64,000 bases of DNA from Kiritimatiellia bacterium (lineage in GTDB: Bacteria; Verrucomicrobiota; Kiritimatiellia; RFP12; UBA1067), in contig JAKSOW010000001.1 of assembly GCA_024405395.1 (NCBI GenBank), positions 6,277 through 70,276 of the forward strand, written 5' to 3'. Made by a program: the position numbers and the translations under genes. This document shows, one piece after another, positions 1 through 16,247 of this stretch. Position 1 is the first letter of the stretch. The number at the start of each line of letters is the position of its first letter. The notes beneath the pieces are model-generated. The model had not been told where the DNA came from and did no database searches. It saw only the letters and a list, made by a program, of their open reading frames with translations.

Positions 1-126
1 TCCTATAACTCTGTACCGCATCGGCAAAAAGCGCTGGATCCTGTATTTTGTCCCATGACGCATAGACGAAGATTGCGGCAATCCCAATTCGCAACACGCC
101 CTCAACAACAAGAACAAGCTTCTGCT

Positions 127-318
127 TCATGGCTCATCTCCTGTTTCGGACTCTCCGCTCTGGTGTGTTTCCGGTCCCGTCCACGGTATGCGTTGCTCTT
201 CGTAGACGCGCAGATTGTTGGCGATGCCCAAAAGCATCGCCAACACGATAATCGCAACCACAACAATCCAATTGAATCGCCACCCCCAAAAAGAAATTTC
301 CAGCCTGCTCATGCGCAT
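127..318 (-). CDS. possible small single-pass membrane protein (63 aa from internal ATG of track ORF 127..375)
   Basis: The ORF has a clear hydrophobic helix (WIVVVAIIVLAMLLGIANNL). The internal ATG at 318 avoids overlap with the protease gene stop at 333. No recognisable family and a weak RBS. Confidence 0.25.
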   Translation of the reverse strand: MRMSRLEISFWGWRFNWIVVVAIIVLAMLLGIANNLRVYEEQRIPWTGPETHQSGESETGDEP

Positions 319-332
319 ATTCCGGGACGACT

Positions 333-1982
333 TCACTTCACCACCACGGGCCAGGACATTGCGGGTTTCTTGCATACGGCAACACCTCGACCAACGCCAT
401 CAACAACAAGCCCATTCACCGTAAATTTGTACTTCGCAAGTTTGGTGCGGCCATTATTCGTCTCTAGTGCATAAATTGTGAAAGTGCCCTTGAATATTCC
501 CGTCTTGGCCGCGAACGAAAGCTTCACACCCGCATTGTTCTCAGCTTCTGGATCATACTGAAGCTCCATCTCCTGGGTTTCGCGATTCTTTGCGTATTTC
601 ACCTTACCGGCCTTGGGGAAGGTCCACTTGGCGCCCGCGACATCAAAGGCCGTTCCGTCTGGCGTCAGGCTAGACAACCAATCAAATCCCTCAGAAGAAG
701 ATGCGTCAACGGAAAGGATCGCCGTACCGTTTTCCAATCCTCCGACAATTGCCTTCTTGACGGAATAACCTTCCGTGTGCAAACCATCGCTTTCAAGCAC
801 ATATCCCTGTGCCGGATCATAGTCCACAACAATCGCCACATCGTTCACTGGCGCCTTGAACGAGAGCAGGCCAGAGATTCGATTCCCCTTCGGAGTGAAA
901 GACTTGGCCTTGGCGGCAACCTTCTTGCCATTGGGCAGAATGATGGATCCGGACACCTTGACTTCATTCTTCTTCTGGTTGTATTTCCCAAGCTTCAGCT
1001 GTACAATTCCCGCAACTTCATCACCCGCATCAATGAGAGCGCCCGAAACGGTCACAGCCTTGGTGTAGGCTGTCGTCACGTCAGGAATCGGCGCAGGCGT
1101 GGGATCGTCCTTGGGATCCTGCGGATCTTTGGGGTCAACCACAGGATCTTTCGGCTTAACACTCTTGCGAAACGCCGCAACAATCGCAAAATTGTCCTTG
1201 ACGGTCTTGGCGTTGTTGTGATTGGCGTCACCCATCGGCACACCCTCGAAATCAATGTCCGGATTGGAGAAATAGGGGATCGTCTGCCAAATTTCAGAGC
1301 TTCCGGGTTTTGGCGTATAGGCAAGCAATGTCGCATAGTTGCCGCTTGACGTCGACAGATAGAATGCCGAGGAATAGGCATCATGGCAGGGGCCATCTGT
1401 CCCATCACCATCTCCATATGTGGAAACATCCGCATGACCCGCCCCCAAGAGATGCCCTATCTCATGCGGGACGACATAGCCATCCTCATGGGCAGCAGCC
1501 TCAACACTTGCGATACAGTAGGCATACGTCGAATATAGACTGGGGCTGGGCCACCCCGCATCAAACTCCCAACCAATACCTGCAGCCCCAGCGGCAATCC
1601 GCGTAAGCACGCAAACCACATCAGCACCCACTTTTTCACGGTACTGATGAACCTTATCCCAGTCATACCCATCTCGGACATGACCTTTTCCTGTATTGTC
1701 GCACACCACATCCGTCAGCATCGAAACGACGTCGCCCGTACCCGAGGACGGCACCAGCAATTCGCCTACCGAACGAAAATCACCTGCAGAAGAGATTCCA
1801 GAATTCGCCATGACGCGGTTGAGCTTCTCTACCGAACTGGCCGTAAGCTCCGAAGGCGACACGCCAGCATCACTTAGCCAATCCTGAGCTGATTTGTCGT
1901 ATACAAACAATACGTCAATTGTTGCGGCCATGGTTATGCCTGTTGCCATCAGGATCCATGCCGCCATTATCATTTTCTTCAT
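333..1982 (-). CDS. secreted zinc metalloprotease, metzincin-type (HEIGHLLGAGH = HExxHxxGxxH) with C-terminal Lys-rich Ig-like (He_PIG-like) modules
   Basis: The track ORF is 333..2015. The likely start is Met12 (MKKMIMAAWILMATGITMAA signal peptide), which overlaps the stop of the upstream gene as ATGA. The HEIGHLLGAGH zinc-binding motif is present. The C-terminus repeats KLSFAAKTGIFKGTFTIY / KLAKYKFTVNG motifs shared with neighbouring genes. Confidence 0.8.
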   Translation of the reverse strand: MKKMIMAAWILMATGITMAATIDVLFVYDKSAQDWLSDAGVSPSELTASSVEKLNRVMANSGISSAGDFRSVGELLVPSSGTGDVVSMLTDVVCDNTGKGHVRDGYDWDKVHQYREKVGADVVCVLTRIAAGAAGIGWEFDAGWPSPSLYSTYAYCIASVEAAAHEDGYVVPHEIGHLLGAGHADVSTYGDGDGTDGPCHDAYSSAFYLSTSSGNYATLLAYTPKPGSSEIWQTIPYFSNPDIDFEGVPMGDANHNNAKTVKDNFAIVAAFRKSVKPKDPVVDPKDPQDPKDDPTPAPIPDVTTAYTKAVTVSGALIDAGDEVAGIVQLKLGKYNQKKNEVKVSGSIILPNGKKVAAKAKSFTPKGNRISGLLSFKAPVNDVAIVVDYDPAQGYVLESDGLHTEGYSVKKAIVGGLENGTAILSVDASSSEGFDWLSSLTPDGTAFDVAGAKWTFPKAGKVKYAKNRETQEMELQYDPEAENNAGVKLSFAAKTGIFKGTFTIYALETNNGRTKLAKYKFTVNGLVVDGVGRGVAVCKKPAMSWPVVVK

Positions 1983-2011
1983 GTCTTTATCCTTTCTTTC
2001 CCTGCTTGTGA

Positions 2012-5000
2012 TCATTTTGCAAACATGTTAAACGGAACCGTAGAAGTCATTCGCTTCCCATTCACTTCTGTCTTGTAGCTGAAATAGCCGCTCGCAAAAG
2101 GCCGTTCTGCAAACTCTCCTGGAAAACTCTCTGCTATACACCCGCAGTCGATCCATCCAGGCGTCAATACTCCGCTAAAGTTCCCTTTGACTTCCTCTTC
2201 TCCAAAGTTAAATGTGGCTTTCCCAGAAACCAAACCTGAAGATGAATTTATCCGGCAAATTGCATCGGGGACTTCTTGACCCATGATTGAACAAACTACG
2301 GATTTCAAATCAAAAAGTCCAAGCCACGATTCAAGGGTAGTACGCTTTGCATAATATATGCCATAGCAGTCCAAGTCGGATGTAAATGCATCAAACTCAC
2401 CCACATGCCGCCATCGTGCGGCTACTCCTCTCACTGGACGAACAACCCGAGCAGTGGTCTCGTCTGCATAGTACTTTTCTCCGTTAGCATGAATTCGCAA
2501 TAAAGCCGAAAGAGAATCTCTCCTTTCCGCATGCAGAATCGGCAAGATTGCGTATTCCGAATCCTCTGGATCAATTGCCAACATTGATTTCGCGCTAAAT
2601 CTCGTACCTGAAGGAAGCGACCCCTTCAACCTAACAGTGCCAGTCTTCGAAACCGAAATCATTGCATATCCGGAACCTGTGAAATTACCGCCTGACACAT
2701 TTTCCACTCCAAATGCCATCGTGTAGTAACCAGCAAACGACCTCAGCTCTCCCATTGCCGAAGATCCAGAGGCACCACCAAACTCAACGCTCAAAACACC
2801 ACTGGCAGATAAGATCAACTTGAGGCTATGTTTGGGGGAAATGAGTTGCGCCGACGCCTCTCCTGAATCAGTATTCATGTATGACCAATAACCACTGAAG
2901 AACTTTGCTTGACTCGATAATTCAACAACCTTGGCCGAAAGTTTACCCGATTTGCTTTGTTTTAGGGTTACCATTCCCACCACATCCGAAGTTCCGTCAC
3001 CTGATGCCTTCACAAGAGGCACCGTCCACAAGCCGCCAACGCCAACAAATTGATTAAACTCACGTGGATCCATGATAGTTACCGTAACCGCCACAACGCC
3101 CGAAGGAATATTGGCATTGCCAATCTTTCTCGTCACCTCATACGAGAAATCAAATATTCCCTTTTTCTTTGCCTGGCCACGCAAACACACGGCTCCCGTC
3201 TGCTCATCAACGTAAAGCCTAAGCCCATTTGGCAATTGCCCCGATTTCTTCTTTACCGTAACCCGAGAGCAACCGTCAACCTCAACAGTTTCTAAAATGC
3301 ACTTCGTTTGGAATCCAACGTACGCGGAGGCCTCCTCATTACCGCTCCCTGGGACAAATTCACAGCTCACCTCCGCTGCATAACAAGAGGAGCCTCCCGC
3401 CACACGAGCAGGCATAGTTCCAGTCAATTTCAATACCGGTCGTAGTGATTGTGCATGTGATTTTCTAACTGCAAATTCCAGGGAATTAGTTCCACAGGCC
3501 ACCACAACTCCGTCTAAGACCAGAGATATCATCACGTCATGCGTGGAAGACACCGACACCGAGAAACTACCTGTTGAGAATCCCCGCAGAATAAACGCTT
3601 CAGCAGCATCACAGATTTGGAAATCAACTTGGGCTCGTCCCCCCGCTACCGACAGCTCCCGTCTAGTTGTGGAGACATAATCAGAAGACTCATCAGCACG
3701 ATTAGCCAATTTCAGAAGATCATCAAGCCGGGCGATGTTTTCCTCTGGATCATAGTAGCGAACATCAGAACCTATTTCACCATTACGGTCTCGCCATGTT
3801 GAGCAACGACCAACAACACGTCCCTTTCCGTCAATCAACAACAGCGTTGGTGTGCTGAGACGAGTCGCAGATGTTTCTGGTGCCTTCCACTCAGAAACTG
3901 AATTTCTGACACTTCGTTCGTGGGCGGCTAACACCAAAGGATCATCAGCATGCAACCCATGGCGAGACAAATATGCAGCACCACTAACCATCTTTCTTTC
4001 ATTCCCTGTATGGATGTGCTCCAAACCCGCGGCATAGGAAAGAAGATGCCCTGCATCTGCGTAAGTGTCGCTCTCTGAGAATGCCTGATCAAACAACACC
4101 AACTGTACCCGATTGTCCTCAAGCCAATCTCGGAATAGATCCGACGCAAAAAGTGATTGTTCCATCCCTTTACAATAGGGACACCATAAGACTCCTGAAT
4201 AAATCGCCAGGATTGCTTTAGCTTTACCCTCGACGACCTTACGACACGCAAGATCATAATCAAGTGTCCAATCCGAATACCTCAACTCCTCTATTGTGCT
4301 TTCCCCCACAAAATATGGATTTGTTGGCGAATTCACCTGGGCATCAACGCAATGCACAAATGAAGAAGAGACCACATCCCCCTTAGAGTCAATAAGAGAC
4401 AGCTCTATGCTCTTTCCTGTGGGAAACTCACATCCCAGAAACTTTTCAAGCGAGAGCGATACGATGGCATTCGTCTGTCCCATTGCCCAATGAATCGCAT
4501 TTGTAACTGGGGGCAGAACATTTCCAGGCCATGCAGCAACCAACAGATTATCGTCGGCAACACCTGGAAGACGCTTCAACGGAATATCAACAAACGACGT
4601 ATTCGACTCTATCTCAAGGCGATCACCCTCTCCGTCTGAGCATTGGAAACCAGCAACTGTACGATTTGTGGTGTAGGACCCGCAGAGTTTCTGAATGCTC
4701 TGTTCCAATTCTATCGCCAACAATTCCAACATTTCTGGATCATGCTCCGCAAGCGCGGAAAGAGACATCGCGGGGTCACGCGGCACAAGCATGCGTCCAG
4801 ATCTTCCAACAAAGCTCTCAGCCAAAGTCTCAACCCCATTCTTTGGCCACCATACACAGATGAACGGGAAACTGGTGAGCCAATTTCCTACAGATTTCGT
4901 GAATCCGGCACTACGAGCGAAATCACAGGCGCCCGTCCCCTCATTTACTTCAATATCCGCGCCAGAGGTACCTTGCACATAACAATAGACATAATCTGAA

Positions 5001-5260
5001 TGCTTCGTTTGCCAAGTGCGAAACGACTCGAGATTGACTGCCGTCTCAAGCTTTTCACACTCGCCACAAGAGGAATTAGCCCAAAACAACACCAGTGGAG
5101 CCTTAAGACTCTGTGCCAGGTTGGTAGCCGCGGTGAACGACTCAAGCCAAACGCCAGTCCTAGTTTCGTTCGAAACCTGGACTGGCGAATCAGCCTGCGC
5201 ATCCAGCGCCACCAAGGCGACAGTCACTGACAGTATCAGCGTGCCGATTCTTGAATGCAA
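2012..5260 (-). CDS. large secreted protein with two thioredoxin-fold CxxC domains (FWANSSCGECEKL and LWCPYCKGMEQ) plus beta-rich/Ig-like regions
   Basis: The track ORF is 2012..5419. Its first 53 codons overlap the upstream gene in another frame and contain no ATG. A TTG at 5260 immediately precedes a good signal peptide (HSRIGTLILSVTVALVALDAQA), so the start is uncertain. There are two CxxC thioredoxin-like motifs, paralogous to the genes at 6640 and 10192. Confidence 0.7.
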   Translation of the reverse strand: MHSRIGTLILSVTVALVALDAQADSPVQVSNETRTGVWLESFTAATNLAQSLKAPLVLFWANSSCGECEKLETAVNLESFRTWQTKHSDYVYCYVQGTSGADIEVNEGTGACDFARSAGFTKSVGNWLTSFPFICVWWPKNGVETLAESFVGRSGRMLVPRDPAMSLSALAEHDPEMLELLAIELEQSIQKLCGSYTTNRTVAGFQCSDGEGDRLEIESNTSFVDIPLKRLPGVADDNLLVAAWPGNVLPPVTNAIHWAMGQTNAIVSLSLEKFLGCEFPTGKSIELSLIDSKGDVVSSSFVHCVDAQVNSPTNPYFVGESTIEELRYSDWTLDYDLACRKVVEGKAKAILAIYSGVLWCPYCKGMEQSLFASDLFRDWLEDNRVQLVLFDQAFSESDTYADAGHLLSYAAGLEHIHTGNERKMVSGAAYLSRHGLHADDPLVLAAHERSVRNSVSEWKAPETSATRLSTPTLLLIDGKGRVVGRCSTWRDRNGEIGSDVRYYDPEENIARLDDLLKLANRADESSDYVSTTRRELSVAGGRAQVDFQICDAAEAFILRGFSTGSFSVSVSSTHDVMISLVLDGVVVACGTNSLEFAVRKSHAQSLRPVLKLTGTMPARVAGGSSCYAAEVSCEFVPGSGNEEASAYVGFQTKCILETVEVDGCSRVTVKKKSGQLPNGLRLYVDEQTGAVCLRGQAKKKGIFDFSYEVTRKIGNANIPSGVVAVTVTIMDPREFNQFVGVGGLWTVPLVKASGDGTSDVVGMVTLKQSKSGKLSAKVVELSSQAKFFSGYWSYMNTDSGEASAQLISPKHSLKLILSASGVLSVEFGGASGSSAMGELRSFAGYYTMAFGVENVSGGNFTGSGYAMISVSKTGTVRLKGSLPSGTRFSAKSMLAIDPEDSEYAILPILHAERRDSLSALLRIHANGEKYYADETTARVVRPVRGVAARWRHVGEFDAFTSDLDCYGIYYAKRTTLESWLGLFDLKSVVCSIMGQEVPDAICRINSSSGLVSGKATFNFGEEEVKGNFSGVLTPGWIDCGCIAESFPGEFAERPFASGYFSYKTEVNGKRMTSTVPFNMFAK

Positions 5261-5265
5261 TACCG

Positions 5266-6048
5266 TCAATCCATCACAGCCTTGACATACGCCGGGAAGG
5301 TATACGCTTCCGTGATTTTGGTTGCCTTCTGCAACTTGGCGGATATTTTCTTGTTGTACTTGATCTTCCAAGTTCCGAATGCCGAAGACCCTTGATTCAG
5401 CGAGCAAGTCTCCCCACACTCCAGACAGATAGGCCAGCCAGGTGCCGTAGCAGTGACGGCCTCCGTTCCCTCAATCTTCTCACACCAGTTGCAAGTCCCT
5501 GAAGTGGCTTTAGTGGTCACTACCGCACCCGGCAACATCCATCCGGCGAAGCTACCGCTGACAGGTGAAATGATTGAAGAAAGGAGCGTGCATGTATTCT
5601 TATCCTTGAGCACATTGTCCTTCAGAGACCCAAATCCTGATCCAACAAGATAGAATGTACCATCTTCTGAACTCAGAATCCATGTCAGTTCACATTTGGC
5701 GGCGCTTTTGTCAATACGATTGGCAATTGGCCACTCAAGCTTGACGTTCAAAGGTTTCTGACTGGTCACATTCCAGAAGAAGTAACCAAAAGCATTGGTG
5801 CTGCTCGTATAGGGCTCACCTTTGATCAACGTATCGCAGTCACATCCCCAGATCACACCCTTGATTGTGACAGATCCCTGTTTACGATACAACGTACTCT
5901 GATCAGTACGCATATCGCAAGCAACCATCTTGGGAGTTCCCGACTGCGTAACCGTAGTCTTAACCTTAATGTCTACTTCGTAGAACTGAGCATCTGCAGA
6001 AGCTGCTCCACAAAGCAGGAGCGCAAACAACATTACGATTGTCTTCAT
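5266..6048 (-). CDS. secreted Cys-rich protein (paralogue of 13779..14657), unknown function
   Basis: It has a signal peptide (MKTIVMLFALLLCGAASADA) and about 12 Cys. The C-terminal motif AFGTWKIKYNKKISAKL...AYTFPAYVKAV is shared with the 13779 gene (AYGTWKLKYSKKIANGTKGVAAYMPAYAK). Confidence 0.75.
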   Translation of the reverse strand: MKTIVMLFALLLCGAASADAQFYEVDIKVKTTVTQSGTPKMVACDMRTDQSTLYRKQGSVTIKGVIWGCDCDTLIKGEPYTSSTNAFGYFFWNVTSQKPLNVKLEWPIANRIDKSAAKCELTWILSSEDGTFYLVGSGFGSLKDNVLKDKNTCTLLSSIISPVSGSFAGWMLPGAVVTTKATSGTCNWCEKIEGTEAVTATAPGWPICLECGETCSLNQGSSAFGTWKIKYNKKISAKLQKATKITEAYTFPAYVKAVMD

Positions 6049-6078
6049 TGTCTTACATCCTTTTTCAATTTTACTAGC

Positions 6079-6612
6079 TTAATCAATGGAGAACTCGGAT
6101 GTCCCAAGTTTGCTGGAGGAAGCTGTACCATACCCCTCGCTGCCGTCAAACGTACCACTGATTTTGACCGTGTACTTTTTGAGCTTCATCTTGGTGACAC
6201 CCTTCTTGGTTTCATATTCCTGCACACCATAGACCTTGAAGGATCCCTTGACTGTTCCCTTCTTGCGGTTGTAGGAAAGCTTAAGACCGGCATAATTAGA
6301 GCTTTTGTCCGAATCCTTGAGCACCAACTCGTAATCCCCATCAACCTTTTTCACTTTGACAGAAAGGGCCTTATCGGTTTTCAACTTCTTGCCTGTGAAA
6401 TAGACAGGCTCGCCATCCGGGAAAAGATCAGACTGAATTTCGATTTCATCATCCGAAATATCAAATCCATCATCCAGTGTGAATGTGAATTCGGAATCCT
6501 CATAACTCTCATCATCTTTGTCCTTATTTTTGGCAAAAGCCGAAGAGATCGGCGCAAGCACCAATCCTAACGCCAAAACACCAATTGCTGTCTTTACCCA
6601 TTTCCTGTTCAT
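6079..6612 (-). CDS. small secreted protein with acidic linker and two Lys-rich Ig-like (He_PIG-like) modules
   Basis: It has a signal peptide (MNRKWVKTAIGVLALGLVLAPISSAFA). The motifs AGLKLSYNRKKGTVKGSFKVYG and KLKKYTVKISG are clearly homologous to the C-terminus of the protease gene (333..1982). Confidence 0.7.
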   Translation of the reverse strand: MNRKWVKTAIGVLALGLVLAPISSAFAKNKDKDDESYEDSEFTFTLDDGFDISDDEIEIQSDLFPDGEPVYFTGKKLKTDKALSVKVKKVDGDYELVLKDSDKSSNYAGLKLSYNRKKGTVKGSFKVYGVQEYETKKGVTKMKLKKYTVKISGTFDGSEGYGTASSSKLGTSEFSID

Positions 6613-6639
6613 GATCAGTTCTCCTTTTTTTGTAAGAAA

Positions 6640-7719
6640 TCAATCTTCAGCCCTTTTGGCTTCTACCACCAATTGAAACTCGCGAACTACCTTGGTTGCC
6701 GCCACATCTCTCCCTTCAGCGGTCACGGTAATATTATAACATCCTTTTCGCCAAAGTGTACCAGAAAAAACACCTTCTTCTGAATCCAGCGAAAGTCCGA
6801 ATGGCATACCCTCTGCGCTGAATTTCATCGGCCGCGTTGCCTCTTCAACTTCTAACCGGAACTTGAATTTCTTCCCTACCTTCGCAATGATCGGTTGTTC
6901 TGGAACCGAAAATACCGGCGGCCTACAAGCAGATACATTCCTGAAATTGGCTGTATAGGTTCCCTCAGTCATACCAGAGTCAATGACTAGCTTACGAGCA
7001 TAACCTACACACCTTCCATTAGGATCCATCCATCCCCAAAACACGCTACCAGAATCATCGGCAATTGCCGTGATTACAACTGTACCACGTTCATCCGCAA
7101 GCTCCCCAGAGACTGGATCCATCTCAATTTTTCCACTCCCTCCTGTTTGAGTGAATTTGAAATACTTTGAGTCAGGACTATGCAATATCTCTTTGGGATT
7201 GGATAATTTTGCCGTATAATCAATCAAAATCTTGTCCAGAGCGGAAATCAATTCCATCTGAAGAAATTTATGTCGAATTCCAGGCATCGTTCCACGACGA
7301 CCAGAGAAAGTCCTTTTTACCTCTGTCCCGTCTTCTTTCTTCCAATATACGCAAACTATCGGTATACCAGTTACCTCCTTGAACCCCTCTCGTTGAAAAG
7401 CTTCTGTTTGCTTGAACTGAGGATTCTTGTCATTTATATGTACCATAAAAATCTTACGGTCATCTTGCCACATCTTGAAATCCGTACTATTCATGGATTT
7501 GTTCAAGCGATAACAGAAACTACATTCAGTTCCAGCACTGATAACTAGAATCGGCTTATGAGCTGATTTCGCAACCGCTAGTGCATTAGTGAAATTATCG
7601 CTCCATACACCTGGCGTAACTTCATGTACGATAGGTATTTTGGCGCTTACTTCATCCCGTCCATGACACAAGGCTGTTACTAATAAAAAAATGAATACCA
7701 CGAGCTTACTCATCTTCAT
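6640..7719 (-). CDS. secreted thioredoxin-fold protein (CSFC active-site-like motif) with C-terminal putative-Ig (cadherin-like He_PIG) domain
   Basis: The track ORF is 6640..7752. The likely start is Met12 (MKMSKLVVFIFLLVTALCHG), overlapping the upstream stop by 1 nt. The thioredoxin-like motif is ILVISAGTECSFCYRLNKSM. The C-terminal FSAEGMPFGLSLDSEEGVFSGTLW is the classic putative-Ig motif. Confidence 0.8.
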   Translation of the reverse strand: MKMSKLVVFIFLLVTALCHGRDEVSAKIPIVHEVTPGVWSDNFTNALAVAKSAHKPILVISAGTECSFCYRLNKSMNSTDFKMWQDDRKIFMVHINDKNPQFKQTEAFQREGFKEVTGIPIVCVYWKKEDGTEVKRTFSGRRGTMPGIRHKFLQMELISALDKILIDYTAKLSNPKEILHSPDSKYFKFTQTGGSGKIEMDPVSGELADERGTVVITAIADDSGSVFWGWMDPNGRCVGYARKLVIDSGMTEGTYTANFRNVSACRPPVFSVPEQPIIAKVGKKFKFRLEVEEATRPMKFSAEGMPFGLSLDSEEGVFSGTLWRKGCYNITVTAEGRDVAATKVVREFQLVVEAKRAED

Positions 7720-9551
7720 TAATTCCCTTCTTTCGTAACCAAATCTAACCAATTCGGTATGTAGAGTTCTGCCCCTGGAACCTGTTCAACCCAAGAAGGT
7801 GGCAAATCATAATCAGAAGACAACCGCCCTGCCAGACGACCAAGAATAACCCGCACCTCCATTTTCTTCTGTAAAGACTCATCTATTTTTTTCCATGAGA
7901 ATGGAGGAGAAAGGAAAATCAGTTTTTCAGGGATGCAGAGACCATGATCCTGACGGTTAAACGTTTCAAGGTATTCAGCACCTCTCCATCCAGCAAGTAC
8001 TAACGTTCGTGTCTTATCTGGCAAAGCCGAAAGTTTCCGCACGAACGCAATTGCTGGGGCATTAGTATGGGACTGGAAAAACTGTCGCATCTCCTTGCCT
8101 TGATAAATCTGATATCCGCCATCAAGAACTGCGTCATCGCCTACAATCCACACTTTGGGATCTTCTCCGTTAAGCAAAACGTGATCTGGGAATCCCTTTA
8201 TGGATACCAACTGTCTGCAATTCCTTCCCCATATACCTACCACTACAACGGCACCAAGAGAAATAACCACAGCCATACATACAGCCACCAAAATCACCCG
8301 CCGTCCAAAAGGTCTAAAATCTTTGAACCCAGAAACAAGTGAAAATATCGGCAACACCCAAAGAAGTGGCTCCTCCAACTCATGTGTGAAACAGGCTGAT
8401 ACACCAAAAGCCACAAAGACCGCAAACGGCAAAGATTTCTTGTCGCGAAACGCCCACACCGCAAACAGGAACATGAAAAACAGCCAAGCAAACACATAGC
8501 CAACACGCTCCATACAACCCATCTCTACAAGCCATGTCAAATGGCTATTCTGCAGCTCAGACACCGCCAACGGCGTATCAAAGGACTGATACCAGTCAAC
8601 ATAGGCACGACCCCCATTACCATAGCCCCAACCTGTGGGAGCATCCGCCATCATTCTCGGTACAGCAGCCCACATTGTTCGCCGATCGGTGCGGGGGTCT
8701 TGGGCAAGAAAACCGCTGGTAAACCTAGTTCCACCAAACTTAAATGCAATGCCACCAAGGGCAACCAGCAGCAACAACGCTACCAGAATTCTGCGGAACG
8801 AAAATAAATCCTTGAATTCCCTAAAATGTGGTACAATAAGGGAAACAATACCCAAAACGAATCCGAGAAGACATCCCCGCGACTGCGTAAGGAACAAGAA
8901 GACCAATGACGCCAAGAAAGGGATGACGGCAACCATCCCGAGAATTAACCGACGACCATGAAACAACACCAATGCCACGGATAGGAACATCACCGACAAC
9001 ATCATAAAGATGGCTGCCGTCTTGTTTGGATTGATGAATTCCCCAAAAGGAATCCGGAACCGACCTGATTCTTTCCAGATGTCTACAGAAGTGACATCAT
9101 CCAACATTCCTCTTTGTTTCTGCTCCCAAAGCTTAGGTATGGCTTCATCCGACTGTACAGGCTTGATGCGCTTAACAACCATCTGCTCCCGATCGAAGGT
9201 CATCTTGCGCAACGTTCCATTATAAAACTCAAATTCCGTCTGTCCCCCAGTAAAGTCATCACGCGTACGAACGGTTGTCCGCCCATATTCAGAATAACCT
9301 TCCCACGGATCTTGGGCGAGTAAACGGGAAGGATTCTCCCGATCACGATACAAATAGCGAACCGTTTGGTCGGGTTGGGTCAATCGGCAAACCTCATAAT
9401 TTATCGGGACGAAAGTGGATTCAACTACATTAGTACCCCATTTAGTTGGGTCAGTTCGAAACCCATAGTAGGCGAATGACACCCATGACTGCAACAGAAC
9501 TATTGCAATCATAAAAATACGACGAATTGACCATGACTTAAACATATTCAC
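7719..9551 (-). CDS. polytopic membrane protein of the O-antigen ligase / Wzy_C family with sizeable N- and C-terminal soluble domains
   Basis: About 10 hydrophobic helices occupy the central 250 residues. FLFLTQSRGCLLGFVLGIV resembles the Wzy_C/WaaL signature (TxSRGA). Soluble domains of about 180 aa (N-terminal) and about 170 aa (C-terminal) flank the helices. The start codon sits 2 nt after the upstream stop. Confidence 0.6.
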   Translation of the reverse strand: MNMFKSWSIRRIFMIAIVLLQSWVSFAYYGFRTDPTKWGTNVVESTFVPINYEVCRLTQPDQTVRYLYRDRENPSRLLAQDPWEGYSEYGRTTVRTRDDFTGGQTEFEFYNGTLRKMTFDREQMVVKRIKPVQSDEAIPKLWEQKQRGMLDDVTSVDIWKESGRFRIPFGEFINPNKTAAIFMMLSVMFLSVALVLFHGRRLILGMVAVIPFLASLVFLFLTQSRGCLLGFVLGIVSLIVPHFREFKDLFSFRRILVALLLLVALGGIAFKFGGTRFTSGFLAQDPRTDRRTMWAAVPRMMADAPTGWGYGNGGRAYVDWYQSFDTPLAVSELQNSHLTWLVEMGCMERVGYVFAWLFFMFLFAVWAFRDKKSLPFAVFVAFGVSACFTHELEEPLLWVLPIFSLVSGFKDFRPFGRRVILVAVCMAVVISLGAVVVVGIWGRNCRQLVSIKGFPDHVLLNGEDPKVWIVGDDAVLDGGYQIYQGKEMRQFFQSHTNAPAIAFVRKLSALPDKTRTLVLAGWRGAEYLETFNRQDHGLCIPEKLIFLSPPFSWKKIDESLQKKMEVRVILGRLAGRLSSDYDLPPSWVEQVPGAELYIPNWLDLVTKEGN

Positions 9552-9553
9552 GA

Positions 9554-10195
9554 TTATTCGTCATCCTCTTCTTCTTGATTTTCCTCAAGCCATTTCTGAG
9601 CGGTGGCAACATTTTTCCAATCATCACCCGTCACGTATTCATAAGCTTCTTTCGCCGCCGCACGCGCAACACCATTACTGCTGGCAATAAGATGAACGAT
9701 GATATCAATAGACAAAGTAGGACGCAGATCGTTCAGTTGAAATGAAATTGATTCCATAACTTCACGATCACGAACCAACATCATGGTCTCCTCAATGAGT
9801 ACACCCTTTTCATGTTCATCCTCAATATCATTAATTGCCGAATCCCATTGATCCTGTGCCTCTGATCTAACGTCTTCATCGCGGTCAAGCAAAAACGGCA
9901 TCAACGCCCGTACAGATTTTTTTCCAAACCAGCCAATGGATTCAACACAACGCAAGCGAACTACTGCATTTTTCGAATTCTTGAGCTTTTCTACATAAGA
10001 CAATGCCTCCTGAAAATCTTCCTTCTCTACAGCATTCTCAAGATCAGAAACCTGCTTCTCTTCGCTAACCGTACATTCTGATGTCTCTACAACATTCTTT
10101 TGCATTTCCTTATCGGGTTCAGACTTGCCGCAACCGCTAAGTAGACAAACAACAACAGCAATACCGACTATATTCTTCATTTCTATCACCTTCAT
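9554..10195 (-). CDS. HEAT-repeat lipoprotein (PBS-lyase HEAT-like), paralogue of 11688..12614
   Basis: The track ORF extends to 10342. The real start at Met50 gives an ATGA overlap with the upstream stop, verified in the sequence at 10192-10195. Lipobox LLSGCG is present. HEAT motif VRLRCVESIGWFGKKSVRALMPFLLDRDEDVRSEAQDQW. The C-terminal tail is acidic. Confidence 0.75.
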   Translation of the reverse strand: MKVIEMKNIVGIAVVVCLLSGCGKSEPDKEMQKNVVETSECTVSEEKQVSDLENAVEKEDFQEALSYVEKLKNSKNAVVRLRCVESIGWFGKKSVRALMPFLLDRDEDVRSEAQDQWDSAINDIEDEHEKGVLIEETMMLVRDREVMESISFQLNDLRPTLSIDIIVHLIASSNGVARAAAKEAYEYVTGDDWKNVATAQKWLEENQEEEDDE

Positions 10196-11685
10196 GGCAA
10201 TGAGGCCAGAACTGTAACGTTGCCTTGACCCTGAATTTTTATTGTTCCTGTGATTTTGCCAGAATTCAAATCCAGACTTAACAAACCGATGACCACATTT
10301 TTCCCAGATTTCCTGAAAACAGGCAACCAGGTCGTTACGCAATCGGTACTCTCAACCAACACACTCTTGGTATTGATGCGAAGTCTATTTGGAAACGTTC
10401 CCTTTATTGAAACTACACCTGTCTTCGCTGCCGCCTTCTTCATTACCAACTGTAGTTCTGTTTCATTTTCAAGGATAATCTTACGGTCCATAACATAAAG
10501 ACTCGCAGGAGACTTTGCTGTCCAAAGTGTATGAGAGAAACAAATTCTACGCGACACACCATCTGTAGATATGAAATTTCCTATCAGCTGCCCTTCGGAT
10601 GTAACAGCTAACAAAAATGAACATCCCACTCCCGTTCCTGAAATTTCCAATATACCATCCGATGACAAACTTTTCCACCCTTTAGAAACCGCCTTCAACT
10701 TGTTATCGACACCATCATACTGGATTTTTGCCTGTCCTTTCTCCGAGAGTGTTAAGGATATTATTCCTTGCATCTCGCCATCCTCTGACAATATAAATCC
10801 ACTTGTCTTCACCGACTTTGTGATCGTGAAGGCAGAACAGACTTTAGAAACTGGAACCACAGTAATCGTTAGGGTAAATGTCTGACTGCCCTTCTCTATT
10901 CCTACATCGCGTTTTTCAGCCAGAATCCAAGAACTGGTAAACGTACCTGCTTTAGTTGGATTTCCTTTAAACAAAACCCGTTTAGAGACAGAATCATAGG
11001 ATACCTTTATTCCCGAAGGGAGTCTTCCAGAAGCCTTCTTTACCTGCACCATCCCACCTACCGTATTGGTTACTTGAAAGTATTCCTCAAAAGGAATATG
11101 CTGAACTGACTCAACAGTTGCATTCCGAAGCGCAAACGCCGGCATTGGCTGATCCATAGGTGCCGATGGTCTAGGAGAATCTAAAGTAGAGGAAAATGCA
11201 AAGCCCGAATCAACCAAAACCTTCTCAACTGAACTAGTCAACTGCAACGCTAGGGGCCCAAGTTTCACCGGCATGTATCCATCGCGACCAACAAAAGCTC
11301 TCTCAATTATCGTTCCATCTGTTTTTGGCCAATAGATGCAAAACAACGGCAACTCATTAATCCACGGATTAATAGATCGTATGAATTTAAGTCCTGCTTT
11401 TGCATCTGAATCGCCATCATGACATACGCTCATTATTATGCGGTGGTCATAAAGCCATTCCTGAAAATCAGCACTATCTAGTGCTGACTTCATCTGATTG
11501 CACATTGGACATGAGCTACGTGCCCACAATAACAACATAGGAGTGCATGTCTCGTTAGCATAGCTAAGACCCTTGGAAAACCCCGCATTCCACTCACCTA
11601 AACATATCTCTCCCCTAGAAAAAGAAAAAGCCCATACACTGAAAACTAGAATGATATTAAAAGACAGTACCAAAATTTTTTTCAT
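10192..11685 (-). CDS. secreted thioredoxin-fold protein (CPMC motif) with putative-Ig domains
   Basis: Signal peptide MKKILVLSFNIILVFSVWAFS is present. The thioredoxin-like motif is LLLWARSSCPMCNQMKSAL. The He_PIG motif is RLPSGIKVSYDSVSKRVLFKGNPTKAGTFTSS. The C-terminal AAKTGVVSIKGTFPNRL matches the module shared with the protease and the small Ig protein. Confidence 0.8.
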   Translation of the reverse strand: MKKILVLSFNIILVFSVWAFSFSRGEICLGEWNAGFSKGLSYANETCTPMLLLWARSSCPMCNQMKSALDSADFQEWLYDHRIIMSVCHDGDSDAKAGLKFIRSINPWINELPLFCIYWPKTDGTIIERAFVGRDGYMPVKLGPLALQLTSSVEKVLVDSGFAFSSTLDSPRPSAPMDQPMPAFALRNATVESVQHIPFEEYFQVTNTVGGMVQVKKASGRLPSGIKVSYDSVSKRVLFKGNPTKAGTFTSSWILAEKRDVGIEKGSQTFTLTITVVPVSKVCSAFTITKSVKTSGFILSEDGEMQGIISLTLSEKGQAKIQYDGVDNKLKAVSKGWKSLSSDGILEISGTGVGCSFLLAVTSEGQLIGNFISTDGVSRRICFSHTLWTAKSPASLYVMDRKIILENETELQLVMKKAAAKTGVVSIKGTFPNRLRINTKSVLVESTDCVTTWLPVFRKSGKNVVIGLLSLDLNSGKITGTIKIQGQGNVTVLASLP

Positions 11686-11687
11686 TG

Positions 11688-12614
11688 CTACTCTCCTTCA
11701 GAATTTTGCCCTTCTTCTTTTGAAATCGTTTTATCAAAATTTTTTCTCTCTGGTATATCGTACTCTGTGTCGTTTATGATTTTCATACCAGAAATATCTA
11801 TTTCTGGGTCAAATACCTCTGGGTGAAGAGATGCTCGATAGACTGGTATGTCATCAGATTCTTCTGACAAATCAATGTTCTCATTGACCCAGGCTTGTGC
11901 AGCCTCAAACGTCGTATACTCCTCCCCTGTTAGAAAAGAATAAGACTCAAGTGCTACATCCACAACATCTGGATTCTCACTATTAATCAAGGCTACCACT
12001 GACTCAATCGCCGTAAAAGTTGATAGTTCATTCAAATTAAAAGCGATATCTTCCAACATATCACGGTCTTTAATCACACCCATTGTAGCTTCAATAATTG
12101 TAGCCTTAACACGCTCATCTTCGACTTGACCTAAAGCAGATAACCAAAGATCTTGTGCAGCATCACGAACATTTTCATCCTGATCAACAAGAAAAGGCGT
12201 CAACTCAGGAAGGGCTTCCTCATTAAACCAACCAAGTGCCTCAATGGCTCTAAGGCGAACAATCTCATTTGTGGAATTTCCCATTAGTTTTGCAAGTTCT
12301 TGAACTGTAGTGAAATCCTCGGCATTAAGAGCTTTATCAACTTCATCAAACAACCGTCGATCCTGTGGCGAAACCTCATCAGGAATTTGAGATCGATCAA
12401 CTTTTCGTTTTTCCCGCCTTAATGTATTAACTTTAATGCTCGTATCCCTTATCTCAACTAGTTGCTTAACATTTGCCGGTTTGCGCCTTGATATACGCAT
12501 TCCAGTTCCAGATCTATTAGTTTGCCCCTCAGTCTCTTTATTGGTTGAAATATTGAAAATGAAAATGGCTATCGTGAATAAAATTACTGAAACTAAAAAA
12601 ATCTTAATTTTCAT
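11688..12614 (-). CDS. HEAT-repeat protein with N-terminal membrane anchor, paralogue of 9554..10195
   Basis: The track ORF extends to 12659. Met16 (MKIKIFLVSVILFTIAIFIF) starts 2 nt after the upstream stop, verified in the sequence. HEAT motif VRLRAIEALGWFNEEALPELTPFLVDQDENVRDAAQDLW is nearly identical in pattern to the gene at 9554. The C-terminal tail is acidic. Confidence 0.75.
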   Translation of the reverse strand: MKIKIFLVSVILFTIAIFIFNISTNKETEGQTNRSGTGMRISRRKPANVKQLVEIRDTSIKVNTLRREKRKVDRSQIPDEVSPQDRRLFDEVDKALNAEDFTTVQELAKLMGNSTNEIVRLRAIEALGWFNEEALPELTPFLVDQDENVRDAAQDLWLSALGQVEDERVKATIIEATMGVIKDRDMLEDIAFNLNELSTFTAIESVVALINSENPDVVDVALESYSFLTGEEYTTFEAAQAWVNENIDLSEESDDIPVYRASLHPEVFDPEIDISGMKIINDTEYDIPERKNFDKTISKEEGQNSEGE

Positions 12615-12615
12615 T

Positions 12616-13692
12616 TTACTTCTTCCTTTTACGCGTTGGGAAAACGATACCTTCTCCATAAGGATATTTGATAATCGCTTTCTTACGCAAATCGCGAATA
12701 GTATTCCCGATAACCTCTTCCTGTCGTTCCTTAATCAATTCACGTTTTATGAATTCAGGATCCTCGTCAAATATTATGGCTGTTCGCCAAACAATGCGGG
12801 CAAGATGGCGAGCAAATACTGTTCCATCACCATTCACATCTTCTTTATCGCCCAAAAATTTTACTATCTCTATCCCATCATCGGTTGTCATAACATCTGT
12901 AATCTCACCAGGCTTTAAACATACTATGCTCTCCCAATAAACTGGGGCTTCCATTGAGAAGTCATCAGCCGTGCAAAAACCCAAGTCACCTCCTGGATTT
13001 TTTTCTTCATCCTGTGAAAAATCATCAGCCAGCTCAGAGAAATCTGCACCAGCCCTTGCCCTTGCCAAAACGTTAGTTGCTTCTGCATAAATGTGAATAT
13101 TTGTCTGCACCATACGCGCATTGTATGCAATCGTTTGCGCCACTTGATTTGAAATTGCTTCGGCAGATACCAGCATTTGAGTTGCCAATGCCGTCTTAAT
13201 GTAGTGCTGGCTCCATAAATCCAGCTCTAGCATCTCTTCAATCACATGACAATTAACACCTTTATCAAAGGAACAAAGTTGTTTGAAAGACATTCCTTTT
13301 TTACCATAGCTTAACGCATATTTTTCCTGAAGCTTCAACCTTTCTTCTTTTGTTGGCACAAAATTCATCCGTTTTGCTTCACTTGCCAACAATGCCATCG
13401 GAAAAAAGTTTTGATATTCTTTCTCCCGAAACCGCGTCTTTAGCATTTGAAACTTATGATCTGCTATAGTACCGACTTTCGCTTTGGCAAAACTCAATTT
13501 TGCCATAATTTGACCCTCATATTGTCCCTTGGTCAACTTTATACCATTGACTTCTACAAGCACCGAGTCAGAGTTGAGGCTACTATATGTTTCTCTCGTG
13601 CCTTTCGCACCATAAACATTGTTTATCCCGAAAGTAAGAAACAACAAAACTATACGAACAATTTTAAATGGAGTATAAGTTTTCATTTCCAC
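12616..13692 (-). CDS. periplasmic chaperone/peptidyl-prolyl isomerase, SurA-N-like domain plus PpiC (parvulin) domain
   Basis: A signal-peptide-like N-terminus is present. The parvulin motif region is FSELADDFSQDEEKNPGGDLGFCTADDFSMEAPVYWESIVCLKPGEITDVMTTDDGIEIVKFLG. Confidence 0.8.
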   Translation of the reverse strand: MEMKTYTPFKIVRIVLLFLTFGINNVYGAKGTRETYSSLNSDSVLVEVNGIKLTKGQYEGQIMAKLSFAKAKVGTIADHKFQMLKTRFREKEYQNFFPMALLASEAKRMNFVPTKEERLKLQEKYALSYGKKGMSFKQLCSFDKGVNCHVIEEMLELDLWSQHYIKTALATQMLVSAEAISNQVAQTIAYNARMVQTNIHIYAEATNVLARARAGADFSELADDFSQDEEKNPGGDLGFCTADDFSMEAPVYWESIVCLKPGEITDVMTTDDGIEIVKFLGDKEDVNGDGTVFARHLARIVWRTAIIFDEDPEFIKRELIKERQEEVIGNTIRDLRKKAIIKYPYGEGIVFPTRKRKK

Positions 13693-13778
13693 TGCTATCT
13701 CAAATGTAAAAAGCGGGAGGAAGCACTTTCATGCATCCACCCGCCTTGTCTCAATTATTCGCCCTTCGGCGAATAACC

Positions 13779-14657
13779 TTACTTAGCATACGCAGGCATA
13801 TAGGCAGCAACACCCTTAGTACCATTGGCAATCTTCTTGCTGTACTTCAGCTTCCACGTACCATACGCAGCAAGCAGTTCAGAACCAGCAGATTCGGTAA
13901 GATCGTCACAAACCGCACCGAAATCATCGCAGATACCAACAAGACCAGCCCAGTGATAGTCACACTCACGAATGGTAGGATCACCCGTCACCGAACCGGC
14001 AACACTACCAGAAACGTTCTTGACAACACCCTTCTTGACATCAAACGAACCAAGACCAGCGAGCTTAAGGTCGTAATCACTGAAATCAGCCGTTTCAGCA
14101 TTAAAACCACCTGCCCCATCCGAGACATTACGCCAAGCATAGTCAATCCAACCCATGTCACCATTCTCATCCTTGGCGTACACCTGCTCCTTACCAGCGA
14201 AGTCCCAGACCATGGAAACCTTGTTGGCCTTCTTCTCGTAACGATAAACCTCATCGCCAACAGCCGACTTGAAGTCATTAGCCTTGTATTTCTCAACAGT
14301 CTTACCGCCTTCGACAACAGTCTCCGTAGTGAGGTAATCACCAATCACGTGCTGGAAGCCCTTATCGGTACGCCAAATCACGTACTGGGCACCATCAAAA
14401 TCGCAAGCCGACTTGCAGTTCCAAATGATACCCTTCAGCGTACGCTTACCATTCTTGTAGTAGGAGACACACGTTTTCGTCTCACCCAAGCACGCACTAC
14501 CACCCTTGCACTTAAGGGTCTTGGGAGCGAGCGTCTTAAGCTTGATCGTAAGATCATAAGCCTGACAATCCGAACTCGGATCAATCGTGCAGAGGTCACC
14601 TGCAAAAACACCAATACCAGCAGCTGCAACAGCGGCAGCAATCATCAACTTCTTCAT
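13779..14657 (-). CDS. secreted Cys-rich protein (paralogue of 5266..6048), unknown function
   Basis: The track ORF extends to 14750. The start at Met32 (MKKLMIAAAVAAAGIGVFAG signal peptide) was verified in the sequence. About 16 Cys. The conserved C-terminus GTWKLKYSKKI...AYMPAYAK is shared with the 5266 gene. The overlapping plus-strand ORF 13731..14732 is low-complexity antisense. Confidence 0.75.
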   Translation of the reverse strand: MKKLMIAAAVAAAGIGVFAGDLCTIDPSSDCQAYDLTIKLKTLAPKTLKCKGGSACLGETKTCVSYYKNGKRTLKGIIWNCKSACDFDGAQYVIWRTDKGFQHVIGDYLTTETVVEGGKTVEKYKANDFKSAVGDEVYRYEKKANKVSMVWDFAGKEQVYAKDENGDMGWIDYAWRNVSDGAGGFNAETADFSDYDLKLAGLGSFDVKKGVVKNVSGSVAGSVTGDPTIRECDYHWAGLVGICDDFGAVCDDLTESAGSELLAAYGTWKLKYSKKIANGTKGVAAYMPAYAK

Positions 14658-15055
14658 TTTTTTTCCTTTTTTAACCGGGTAGAATCCCGTGCCTTTACGA
14701 CGGTCGATCGTTTCCCAGATGAAAACCGCTGAGATATTCGGCCGGGCCACACTAGTATACCCGTACTTTTTTACAGGAGCTACCCTGATCTCTCACGCTT
14801 CGGGGCTGCATTCAGTAGCCCAGCACGTAACAATCTTTCGACCATTACTCCTAGGGTACTGGACTAATCCAGCCACCCTTCCACGGGAGAAACGCGCATA
14901 TCATATCAAAAGTCGTTTTGCCTTGCAAGTGGGAAATCAATTTTTTTTTCATTTTCTTTGTCACAACGCCACCAGGTGGATTTGCCTTGTAAGACTATTT
15001 AATGAGCGCACCATACACAATGCAAATGCAAAACTCTCTTGTTCATAAACAGAAC

Positions 15056-15077
15056 AGCTCGTCGGTTGACGAGCTGC
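15056..15077 (-). terminator. perfect 9-bp hairpin (CAGCTCGTC-GGTT-GACGAGCTG) followed by a U-rich tract on the minus strand, downstream of the bS22-like gene
   Basis: The inverted repeat was read directly. The minus-strand flank UUCUGUUUAU is U-rich. Confidence 0.45.
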
Positions 15078-15119
15078 TTGTTGATTGATGCCTTGAAGCA
15101 TCTTATCCTATAATAAGGA

Positions 15120-15209
15120 TTACTTGTTTTTGTGGCGCTGCGCCTTCATGCGCTTGTCGTATTTGTGCTTCGACATTTTTTTCCGCCGTTTTTTCTTGAT
15201 CGAACCCAT
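15120..15209 (-). CDS. 29-aa highly basic protein MGSIKKKRRKKMSKHKYDKRMKAQRHKNK, ribosomal protein bS22-like (AURKAIP1/COX24-type)
   Basis: Not in the ORF track because it is under 60 aa. Hand translation shows a strong RBS (AAGGAG 6 nt upstream). The MGS(I/V)IKKRRKRM-type N-terminus is characteristic of bS22. A terminator hairpin follows. Confidence 0.65.
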   Translation of the reverse strand: MGSIKKKRRKKMSKHKYDKRMKAQRHKNK

Positions 15210-15279
15210 TTTGTTCTCCTTGGTTGAGGGTTTAAAGCAACTGAGGCCCCTTAGCCCAGATGCCTATTGGCCCGTTGCT

Positions 15280-16149: not shown

Positions 16150-16247
16150 TTACAGTATCTCCATTTGTTCGAAAGCACCCATTATAACATAAAGTGCCTT
16201 GAACCGCAAGTAGTTGCGTTTACAGAATTTTCAGGCGGCAAAAATGG

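Follow-up and report, generated by a model that had tools for sequence, protein, structure and literature searches.

Gene content and extent of the block

The subject of this analysis is a low-GC block of secreted-protein genes at the left end of a 64,000-nucleotide stretch of a Kiritimatiellia metagenome-assembled genome (MAG; GenBank GCA_024405395.1, contig JAKSOW010000001.1, positions 6,277 to 70,276), called the window below. Eleven open reading frames (ORFs), all on the minus strand and arranged head to tail, tile window positions 333-14657, as described in a first-pass annotation of this DNA, and gene calls on a Logan contig, which comes from an independent assembly, agree with them. Identifiers of the type L001, L005, and L016 denote metagenome contigs or loci compared with the window. 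Logan contig L001 matches window 1-12015 with 100% identity and extends 1.1 kb beyond its left end. The left boundary does lie outside the window, as had been stated: left of the metzincin gene the block runs on with a small transmembrane (TM) protein of 82 amino acids (aa), MauE, and a WbaP-like sugar transferase (read from L001), and it is thus larger than first described. Adjacent genes overlap by 4 or 1 nt or are separated by 1-30 nt, with two exceptions, 38 nt between CysA and Trx1071 and 86 nt between CysB and the peptidyl-prolyl isomerase (PPIase). The earlier description of all junctions as gaps of at most 30 nt or ATGA/1-nt overlaps therefore holds for most of them and fails for these two. 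The features are as follows.

1-130, minus strand: 5' end of the MauE gene (Pfam MauE), the remainder lying left of the window; the 146-aa product is encoded at L001:11886-12326
127-375, minus strand: 82-aa single-TM protein, from the L001 gene call; no Pfam match
333-2015, minus strand: secreted metzincin-type zinc protease (HEIGHLLGAGH; Reprolysin_3/Reprolysin_4)
2012-5227, minus strand: Trx1071, secreted protein of 1071 aa containing two CxxC domains of thioredoxin-like type (CGEC and CPYC)
5266-6048, minus strand: CysA, secreted Cys-rich protein of 260 aa that founds an unnamed family
6079-6612, minus strand: o177, 177-aa secreted beta-module protein, similar to the metzincin C-terminus
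6640-7719, minus strand: TrxHePIG, secreted protein with a thioredoxin-like domain (CSFC) and a He_PIG immunoglobulin (Ig)-like domain, from Pfam and profiles
7719-9545, minus strand: 608-aa polytopic membrane protein of the Wzy_C (O-antigen-ligase) family, from Pfam Wzy_C
9554-10180, minus strand: HEAT-repeat lipoprotein (LLSGC lipobox), from a HEAT_2 match below cutoff and paralogy
10192-11685, minus strand: o497, secreted protein with thioredoxin-like (CPMC), Ig-like, and beta domains, from paralogy and the AlphaFold2 model
11688-12614, minus strand: 308-aa HEAT-repeat protein anchored in the membrane by its N-terminus, from HEAT_2
12616-13692, minus strand: SurA/PpiD-like parvulin PPIase, from Rotamase domains
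13693-13778, minus strand: two strong hairpins (terminator or attenuator), from folding energy and positional conservation
13779-14657, minus strand: CysB, secreted Cys-rich protein of 292 aa, paralogous to CysA and leading the block, from similarity to CysA
14658-14928, minus strand: promoter-like site (TTGCAA-17-TATGAT with TG) and CysB leader of ~240 nt, from motif and folding
15053-15078, minus strand: intrinsic terminator of the hisG-bS22 unit, an 11-bp stem followed by a T run, at the right-hand block boundary

All products of the block have a signal peptide, a lipobox, or TM segments. Several sets of paralogues occur among them, namely three Trx-Ig-beta proteins, two HEAT proteins, CysA and CysB, and the beta module common to the metzincin and the 177-aa protein. 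PADLOC defence models give no match among 10 operon proteins.

Protease, folding, and ligase-type proteins

Pfam supports the metzincin, Wzy_C, parvulin PPIase, and HEAT assignments of the first-pass annotation, one HEAT protein being below the cutoff. The metzincin matches Reprolysin_3 with 26.1 bits (cutoff 22.4) and Reprolysin_4 with 22.3 bits (cutoff 22), its zinc motif HEIGHLLGAGH fits HExxHxxGxxH, and its NCBI name is zinc-dependent metalloprotease. The NCBIfam search of the block returns only a weak Mep72-like match for this protein (E 3e-11) and a DsbH-like trace. The C-terminal beta modules of the metzincin (approximately residues 300-560) recur in the 177-aa protein and in proteases of related loci; residues 448-554 match residues 61-172 of o177 with E 9e-10. 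The 177-aa protein has nothing significant in Pfam and is 71-73% identical to its L005 and L016 orthologues. A relaxed Pfam search of the shared beta modules together with CysA and CysB gives nothing significant and no tail domain of the type IX secretion system (T9SS).

As for the folding factors, the PPIase reaches 48.6 bits for Rotamase_3 (cutoff 22.5) and 40.9 bits for Rotamase (cutoff 21.7), with a weak SurA_N_3 match. The membrane-anchored HEAT protein scores 39 bits for HEAT_2 (cutoff 27.7), and the HEAT lipoprotein, at 24.6 bits below that cutoff, is 38% identical to HEAT323 (E 3e-41). The 82-aa TM protein has a counterpart of 62-63 aa directly upstream of MauE in relatives and is 37% identical to the L005 version.

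The Wzy_C protein, named O-antigen ligase family protein by NCBI, has long hydrophobic stretches and scores 49.7 bits (cutoff 31.7) over residues 212-345. Its orthologues are found in L005, L008, L009, L010, and L013, and no PDB relative is detected by sequence. WaaL, PglL, and Wzy activities are not separable by sequence within the Wzy_C family; the presence of Wzm/Wzt in the L009 locus makes a polymerase role less likely and points to a putative ligase-type one. Orthologues of the WbaP-like transferase consist of CoA_binding_3 and Bac_transf domains, and the best match to the WbaP-like fragment has 60% identity.

Cys-rich proteins CysA and CysB

The description of CysA and CysB as secreted Cys-rich paralogues is upheld by a 26% identity between them (E 1e-8), with N- and C-terminal motifs in common. 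CysA matches neither Pfam nor NCBIfam, and CysB has no Pfam match. All 37 homologues of CysA (37-80% identity) are metagenome-derived, and the CysA/CysB family as a whole comprises 246 representative clusters at 50% identity (E<=1e-3), likewise from metagenomes and unnamed. Cysteines 69, 71, 186, 189, 208, and 211 of CysA are invariant in the family and form one CxC and two CxxC motifs. The AlphaFold2 model of CysA is all-beta, with a predicted local distance difference test (pLDDT) score of 75.8, and neither a Foldseek comparison of this model with PDB nor a search of PDB sequences with the CysA profile gives a credible match. Judging from these comparisons, CysA and CysB form a new, unnamed family of predicted secreted Cys-rich proteins. 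A phage origin of the block was considered and rejected, since no CysA relative occurs among IMG/VR viral contigs.

Thioredoxin-like proteins and MauE

Four thioredoxin-like CxxC domains are spread over o497, TrxHePIG, and Trx1071, and the earlier reading of three thioredoxin-fold CxxC proteins gains support from conservation of the motif, from paralogy, and from PDB profile matches. A single CxxC is present in the aligned region of 12 out of 12 N-type domains and of all middle-type domains (at least 6) from orthologues and paralogues, related loci included. The CSFC of TrxHePIG is conserved, and so is CP[YHND]C among Trx1071 orthologues. TrxHePIG matches He_PIG with 32.9 bits (cutoff 24) and Thioredoxin_7 below cutoff (23.2 bits). 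Trx1071, which has sub-threshold Thioredoxin_2 and Thioredoxin_7 matches, is related to TrxHePIG and shares a paralogous C-terminal beta region with o497, while o497 has no Pfam match and resembles TrxHePIG in its N-domain (E 2e-26). Against PDB, the profile of the TrxHePIG N-domain finds AGR3 (9e-5), then DsbH and DsbA, and that of the Trx1071 middle domain finds chlamydial DsbH (2ju5, 5.6e-4), then tryparedoxin and DsbA; both lists contain thioredoxin-fold oxidoreductases only. In the AlphaFold2 model of o497, whose nearest homologues are only ~50% identical, the region 188-497 is modelled with confidence, and its part 188-277 is similar to the Ig domain of alpha-dystroglycan.

The MauE product scores 101.3 bits for PF07291 (cutoff 27) and 33.5 bits for DoxX. 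It contains EIDCGCFG, and CGC is present in every MauE orthologue compared, including those of L005 and L016. MauE proteins replace DsbB in Escherichia coli; their active site is CXC, usually CGC, followed by a conserved Phe-Gly, and they are probably quinone-coupled (bioRxiv 10.64898/2026.03.05.709764). According to the Pfam domain and the CGCFG motif, the MauE found here matches this published pathway as a putative DsbB analogue. In L005 and L016, MauE is directly followed by genes for a polyprenyl synthase, UbiE-like and UbiA-like proteins, electron-transfer flavoprotein (ETF) alpha and beta subunits, and ETF:quinone oxidoreductase (ETF-QO). The MauE gene even overlaps the start of the polyprenyl synthase gene in L005:10974-17043 and L016:12576-17490, a tight link to quinone metabolism.

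Relatives of the block

The same gene set is found in more than 10 independent Kiritimatiellae loci from rumen and gut MAGs. The closest relatives (L005, L006, L016, and L017, with CysA identity of 80%) have the order CysB-PPIase-HEAT-o497-HEAT-Wzy_C-TrxHePIG-o172-CysA-o63-MauE, do not carry Trx1071 and the metzincin, and are flanked by a CLC channel gene and the quinone/ETF genes, not by hisG and WbaP. Reshuffled versions are carried by nine GTDB representative genomes, all of them ruminant-gut Kiritimatiellae MAGs. Thus, L010 has CysB-PPIase-Trx-Wzy_C-o177-HEAT-CysA-Trx-metzincin, and L009 has CLC-CysB-PPIase-Trx-Wzy_C-...-HEAT-CysA-HEAT together with a C10 peptidase, which bears the common C-terminal modules, and WbaP-Wzm-Wzt-GT8/GT2. 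The set is retained in more distant loci, but MauE is absent there. Since the module recurs in reshuffled loci and stands with WbaP-Wzm-Wzt in L009, the gene set appears to be an old module specific to this class and connected with a glycan pathway of the ABC-transporter type. The relatives carry the operon at other positions and at near-host GC, and a conserved placement with matching codon usage in all of them, which would have spoken against acquisition, is not what is observed.

Transcription signals around CysB

The junction at the right-hand end of the block reads, in order, terminator, promoter, and leader. The hisG-bS22 unit is closed by a strong terminator (15078-15053) and followed by the promoter-like site at 14928-14900 and the CysB leader (14658-14900, minus strand), which folds at -84.4 kcal/mol (z -3.0 compared with shuffled controls). 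An Rfam search of the whole window and the leader gives no family match, and the leaders of relatives (~340 nt) are not alignable with it beyond the -10 region. Immediately after the CysB stop codon there is a pair of hairpins, of which the second precedes a U run, with a folding energy of -39 kcal/mol (z -5.45); hairpins lie at the same place in L016, L005, L009, and L010 despite differing sequence, and CysB orthologues head the cluster in all four.

The block had been described as one polycistronic operon. This does not hold for CysB, which is bracketed by its own promoter-like site, leader, and conserved terminator-like hairpin, although the remaining junctions are tight. Because of this separate leader and terminator, a single transcript of the block is unlikely. 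These signals suggest that CysB has a separately terminated and probably abundant transcript of its own, from which some transcription continues into the accessory genes, and by analogy its layout looks like the pattern of a major structural subunit and not like one uniform polycistron.

Composition of the block and its neighbours

The first-pass annotation estimated the GC content of the block at ~45%, below that of dnaA/dnaN and of the 27-64 kb region, and the measurements agree closely with this estimate. Sliding GC is 0.39-0.53 at 1-15 kb, 0.51-0.60 at 15-25 kb, and ~0.63 at 27-64 kb. Pooled GC and third-codon-position GC (GC3) are 45.9/44.5 for the operon, 56.6/70.4 for hisG to gidA, and 63.2/81.4 for the genes at 27-64 kb; per-gene GC3 of the operon differs from that of either other group with Mann-Whitney p ~3e-5. 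Tetranucleotide z-scores also set the operon apart from its flanks: its halves correlate with the rest at 0.05-0.39, and the other segments correlate mutually at 0.49-0.72, the core and right-hand segments doing so despite their own GC difference. The composition boundary at the hisG-bS22 terminator is sharp.

At four-fold degenerate sites, the frequencies of A/C/G/T are.24/.17/.25/.35 in the operon and.08/.39/.34/.19 in the core genes, with C falling and T rising most. The coding-strand excess of G over C (skew ~+0.2) is much stronger in the operon than in its neighbours. Transcription-coupled deamination was considered for this skew and rejected, because A rises as much as T at four-fold sites. 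GC1, GC2, and GC3 are near the Muto-Osawa values for a genome of 46% GC and thus give no sign of amelioration. As for the proteins, which had been called rich in Lys, Asn, and Ile instead of Ala, Arg, and Gly, only the second half of the statement stands: A+R+G is lower in the operon (0.200, compared with 0.228 in core genes and 0.269 in the right-hand block), but K+N+I is not raised (0.158 versus 0.168 in core genes).

Position of the block and strain distribution

The 10 operon proteins compared are all singletons at 90% identity, whereas 6 out of 8 neighbours have relatives (Fisher p ~0.0015); among other samples, hisG, dnaN, dnaA, gidA, a transporter, and a HAD hydrolase have between 7 and 79 close relatives. 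In another sample (L100), a collinear backbone gidA-nhaP-dnaA-dnaN-rlmL-HTH-hisG-bS22 is found at 89-93% nucleotide identity and with GC likewise in the mid-50s. The contig of L100, the closest syntenic relative, ends inside bS22 at window 15131, i.e., at the junction, and that of L002, a strain 97.7% identical in its hisG region, ends at window 15048. For the 9 genes in common with L016, GC3 is 0.21-0.36 below that of the L016 orthologues, while the flanks of both are alike. Amino-acid replacements relative to L016 go 86:35 towards AT-rich codons (z ~4.6), which points to long-acting AT pressure.

The synteny around hisG-bS22 was surveyed in loci L020-L099 and L101-L106. The operon stands beside hisG-bS22 in none of the 42 loci with at least 2.5 kb of downstream sequence. 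The neighbourhood is, however, fluid in general, which weakens the argument: being moved relative to hisG is not by itself proof of transfer.

Several observations concern the hisG-bS22 unit itself. Similarity to hisG and the 29-aa bS22-like gene (window 15117-16177) is sharp-edged and limited to this 1.08-kb two-gene unit in 80 metagenome loci. Its flanks (secretin/pseudopilin, Peptidase_U32/T2SSF, and PglD/DegT among others) are unrelated in nearly every locus, even at 96-97% HisG identity. One hisG relative (84% identical) encodes, at L053:1-3600, proteins homologous to the 177-aa module and to the HEAT proteins; they lie 3-6 kb upstream of hisG, on the other side of it from the operon of the window. 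In L002:1-410, the sequence upstream of hisG, compared with window 16231 onward, is not the HTH/XRE gene but a 70%-identical relative of a gene in the 62.2-62.9 kb region of the window (62569-62900).

Comparison with known systems

In comparison with the MauE pathway (bioRxiv 10.64898/2026.03.05.709764) and MauE-MauD of methylamine dehydrogenase clusters, the likeness lies in a four-TM MauE/DoxX protein with CGC followed by F-G, in the location of MauE beside genes for periplasmic thioredoxin-like CxxC proteins and exported Cys-rich proteins, and, in the closest relatives only, in adjacent quinone-biosynthesis and ETF-QO genes. The block differs in having no MauA, MauB, or MauG, in its large multi-domain Trx-Ig-beta partners in place of a small MauD or DsbA, and in presumed substrates that belong to a new family.

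Regarding ABC-transporter-type O-antigen loci (WbaP/WecA, Wzm/Wzt, WaaL) and loci for PglL-type O-glycosylation of proteins, the shared traits are a Wzy_C protein beside a WbaP-like transferase, Wzm/Wzt with a GT8-GT2 protein in relative L009, and sub-genome GC, strain-variable content, and shifting position by housekeeping genes (PMC3715488). In contrast to such loci, the block consists mostly of secreted proteins and folding catalysts and not of sugar-pathway enzymes, and no wzx/wzy polymerase pair or nucleotide-sugar genes are visible in the window. By analogy, the block behaves like an O-antigen locus, being low in GC, strain-variable, and probably replaced from a lower-GC relative.

The anchoring of T9SS cargo in Bacteroidota (anionic lipopolysaccharide, WaaL/WbaP) is similar in logic only, with proteases (the metzincin, or the C10 peptidase in L009) and other secreted proteins sharing a C-terminal beta module and standing with Wzy_C and WbaP-like proteins. 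No T9SS genes and no Por_Secre_tail domain are detected by Pfam, and the phylum is different. As for genes of major S-layer or pilin subunits, CysB resembles them in its first place ahead of the accessory genes, in the promoter-like site and the long structured leader before it, and in the terminator hairpin right behind it, whose position is conserved in four relatives. Unlike them, CysA has no sequence or fold similarity to a known S-layer protein or pilin in the PDB searches.

Interpretation and alternatives

The explanation that we favour, with slightly better than even confidence, is that the block is one strain's version of a gene set peculiar to rumen and gut Kiritimatiellae, a lineage-specific locus for the assembly of surface proteins and glycoconjugates. 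It would combine a MauE-thioredoxin arm for oxidative folding with a glycan arm of ligase-type Wzy_C and WbaP, both serving the new Cys-rich family, and would have been replaced from a lower-GC relative. The original reading of the genes as an extracytoplasmic folding, oxidation, or surface-decoration module is supported and refined by the signal peptides, lipobox, and TM segments, the CxxC motifs, the CGCFG of MauE, and the links to WbaP, Wzm/Wzt, and glycosyltransferases in relatives.

For the roles of the individual products we infer the following scheme. CysB, and CysA further down, would be exported by Sec, and CysB is probably an abundant product, given its own promoter, long structured leader, and a terminator permitting read-through. 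The thioredoxin-like proteins o497, TrxHePIG, and Trx1071 would introduce the disulfides of CysA and CysB, and MauE would re-oxidise these proteins through its CGC loop and pass the electrons on to quinone. The parvulin PPIase and the HEAT proteins may serve as periplasmic chaperones or scaffolds. The WbaP-like transferase would start an undecaprenyl-linked glycan, which the Wzy_C protein would transfer to a periplasmic acceptor, possibly lipid A-core or the CysA/CysB-type proteins themselves. The C-terminal beta modules of the metzincin and the 177-aa protein may dock both to the same surface structure. The arrival of the block would most likely be a recombinational replacement from a lower-GC relative. 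A bolder version, which is speculative and rather unlikely, is that CysA and CysB build a new envelope structure, oxidised by the MauE-Trx relay and glycosylated or anchored by a PglL-like Wzy_C protein, with the proteases docked on it by their common C-terminal module, as an analogue of T9SS cargo anchoring outside Bacteroidota, and the whole cassette exchanged between lineages as a unit of antigenic variation; such exchange would explain the low-GC singleton version.

The horizontal acquisition proposed in the first-pass annotation is plausible, at about even chances, on the grounds of composition and distribution, but unproven, the gene set being native to the class and no donor having been found. 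Because of this native gene set, any donor would be a lower-GC relative and not a foreign phylum. A number of observations weigh against the favoured explanation. Among 5.8 billion proteins, there is no donor above 50-80% identity, and the nearest proteins lie in high-GC contexts. No tRNA, no flanking direct repeats, and no integrase or transposase domains were detected, in line with the earlier annotation, and the left edge is beyond the sequence. The neighbours of hisG-bS22 differ in almost every relative, so position alone says little. The clusters of the relatives are likewise 3-10 GC points below their own flanks, which makes part of the low-GC bias intrinsic to the locus. As for function, the Thioredoxin_2/Thioredoxin_7 matches in Pfam (23-26 bits) stay below the 27-bit cutoff, the thioredoxin N-domain of the o497 model has a low pLDDT of 30-55, MauE accompanies the gene set only in the window and in the clade nearest to it, and Wzm/Wzt with glycosyltransferases are observed in L009 only.

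Some of these points on origin lend credit to vertical inheritance without transfer, the AT-enrichment having arisen in place through mutation or selection peculiar to the locus, such as fast diversification of surface antigens, weak codon selection, or little GC-biased recombination; the singleton status would then reflect rapid divergence and not acquisition. We regard this as the less probable account, though one to be taken seriously. Besides the somewhat lower GC already seen in relatives and the absence of a donor and mobility genes in the searches, GC3 in the window and in L016 runs parallel gene by gene (r = 0.78), again at odds with replacement, and divergence is greatest in the genes richest in AT (r = 0.70 between GC3 and identity). 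In surface-glycan (O-antigen or capsule) loci, GC is considerably lower than in the genome and reaches its minimum in processing genes; this has been read as transfer from lower-GC sources, but the explanation of the low GC of wzx/wzy-type loci is still incomplete (PMC3715488). Enrichment in place is harder to reconcile with the very large drop in GC3 (0.44 versus 0.70-0.81 in adjacent genes), the sharp boundary at the hisG-bS22 terminator, codon positions at equilibrium for a 46% GC genome, the different tetranucleotide signature, and a position unlike that in every relative.

Two further alternatives concern the reality of the junction and of the machine. The sequence is a MAG from a metagenome, the contigs of L002 and L100 end within ~100 nt of the junction, and no other sample has both of its sides, all of which would fit a chimera of two Kiritimatiellae populations of one sample joined at ~14.7-15.1 kb. 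Such a chimera is nevertheless very improbable: a Logan contig by a different assembler, although built from the same reads, crosses the junction over window 13337-15161 at 100% identity, no repeat at the junction could mislead an assembler, and the terminator-promoter-leader layout is orderly. It is also improbable, albeit less so, that the genes are mere neighbours, with general periplasmic folding factors, an ordinary lipopolysaccharide O-antigen ligase, and unrelated CysA/CysB. MauE has been proposed as a generalist disulfide-forming enzyme (bioRxiv 10.64898/2026.03.05.709764), Wzy_C proteins are mostly WaaL-type ligases, and distant loci do without MauE. Yet CysB, PPIase, Trx, Wzy_C, HEAT, and CysA remain linked despite 41-60% CysA identity and reshuffled order, the block contains five pairs or triplets of paralogues, the proteases and a small protein share C-terminal modules, and strain-specific singletons are unexpected for general folding factors.

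Other features of the window

Located immediately after the hisG-bS22 terminator, the block is ~10 kb away from the probable origin. Window 25850-27250, which separates gidA from the following gene, is a 1.4-kb region with no convincing ORF and GC of 0.44-0.49, and it is probably oriC, since the cumulative GC-skew minimum is at ~23-25 kb. It contains a 33-nt inverted repeat (25931-25963 / 26135-26167) and three copies of AATCCTGTT; the count of E. coli-type DnaA boxes in the window is not above chance. The gidA/mnmG gene (23876-25843, minus strand), with a GC3 of 0.57 that is unusually low for the backbone, has three copies of the 16-nt perfect palindrome TGTTCCACGTGGAACA, 51-54 nt apart (window 24988-25117). 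These copies are read in frame as three CSTWNN repeats within an insertion of MnmG.

Within the right-hand block of 63% GC, a lone low-GC gene is present at window 56658-57536 (GC 0.52, GC3 0.49), and the intergenic sequence 57565-57663 is 80% identical over 99 nt to an unrelated hisG locus (L027:530-628). Two giant plus-strand ORFs of 3509 and 2015 aa (37854-48383 and 49537-55584) lie near AAA ATPase and TMEM43-like genes.

Significance

Kiritimatiellae are abundant, almost uncultured glycan degraders of animal guts, and to our knowledge nothing is known of their surface. The locus provides a concrete, conserved candidate for a system of surface-protein and glycan assembly in this class. It is also a natural test case for the MauE disulfide pathway, with three Trx-Ig proteins as candidate partners and CysA/CysB as candidate substrates. 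A caution for the reading of MAGs follows as well, namely that low-GC "islands" can be native-class cassettes and not foreign DNA. According to composition and distribution, the block suggests a strain-variable surface determinant, which would be relevant to rumen phage and host-immune pressure.

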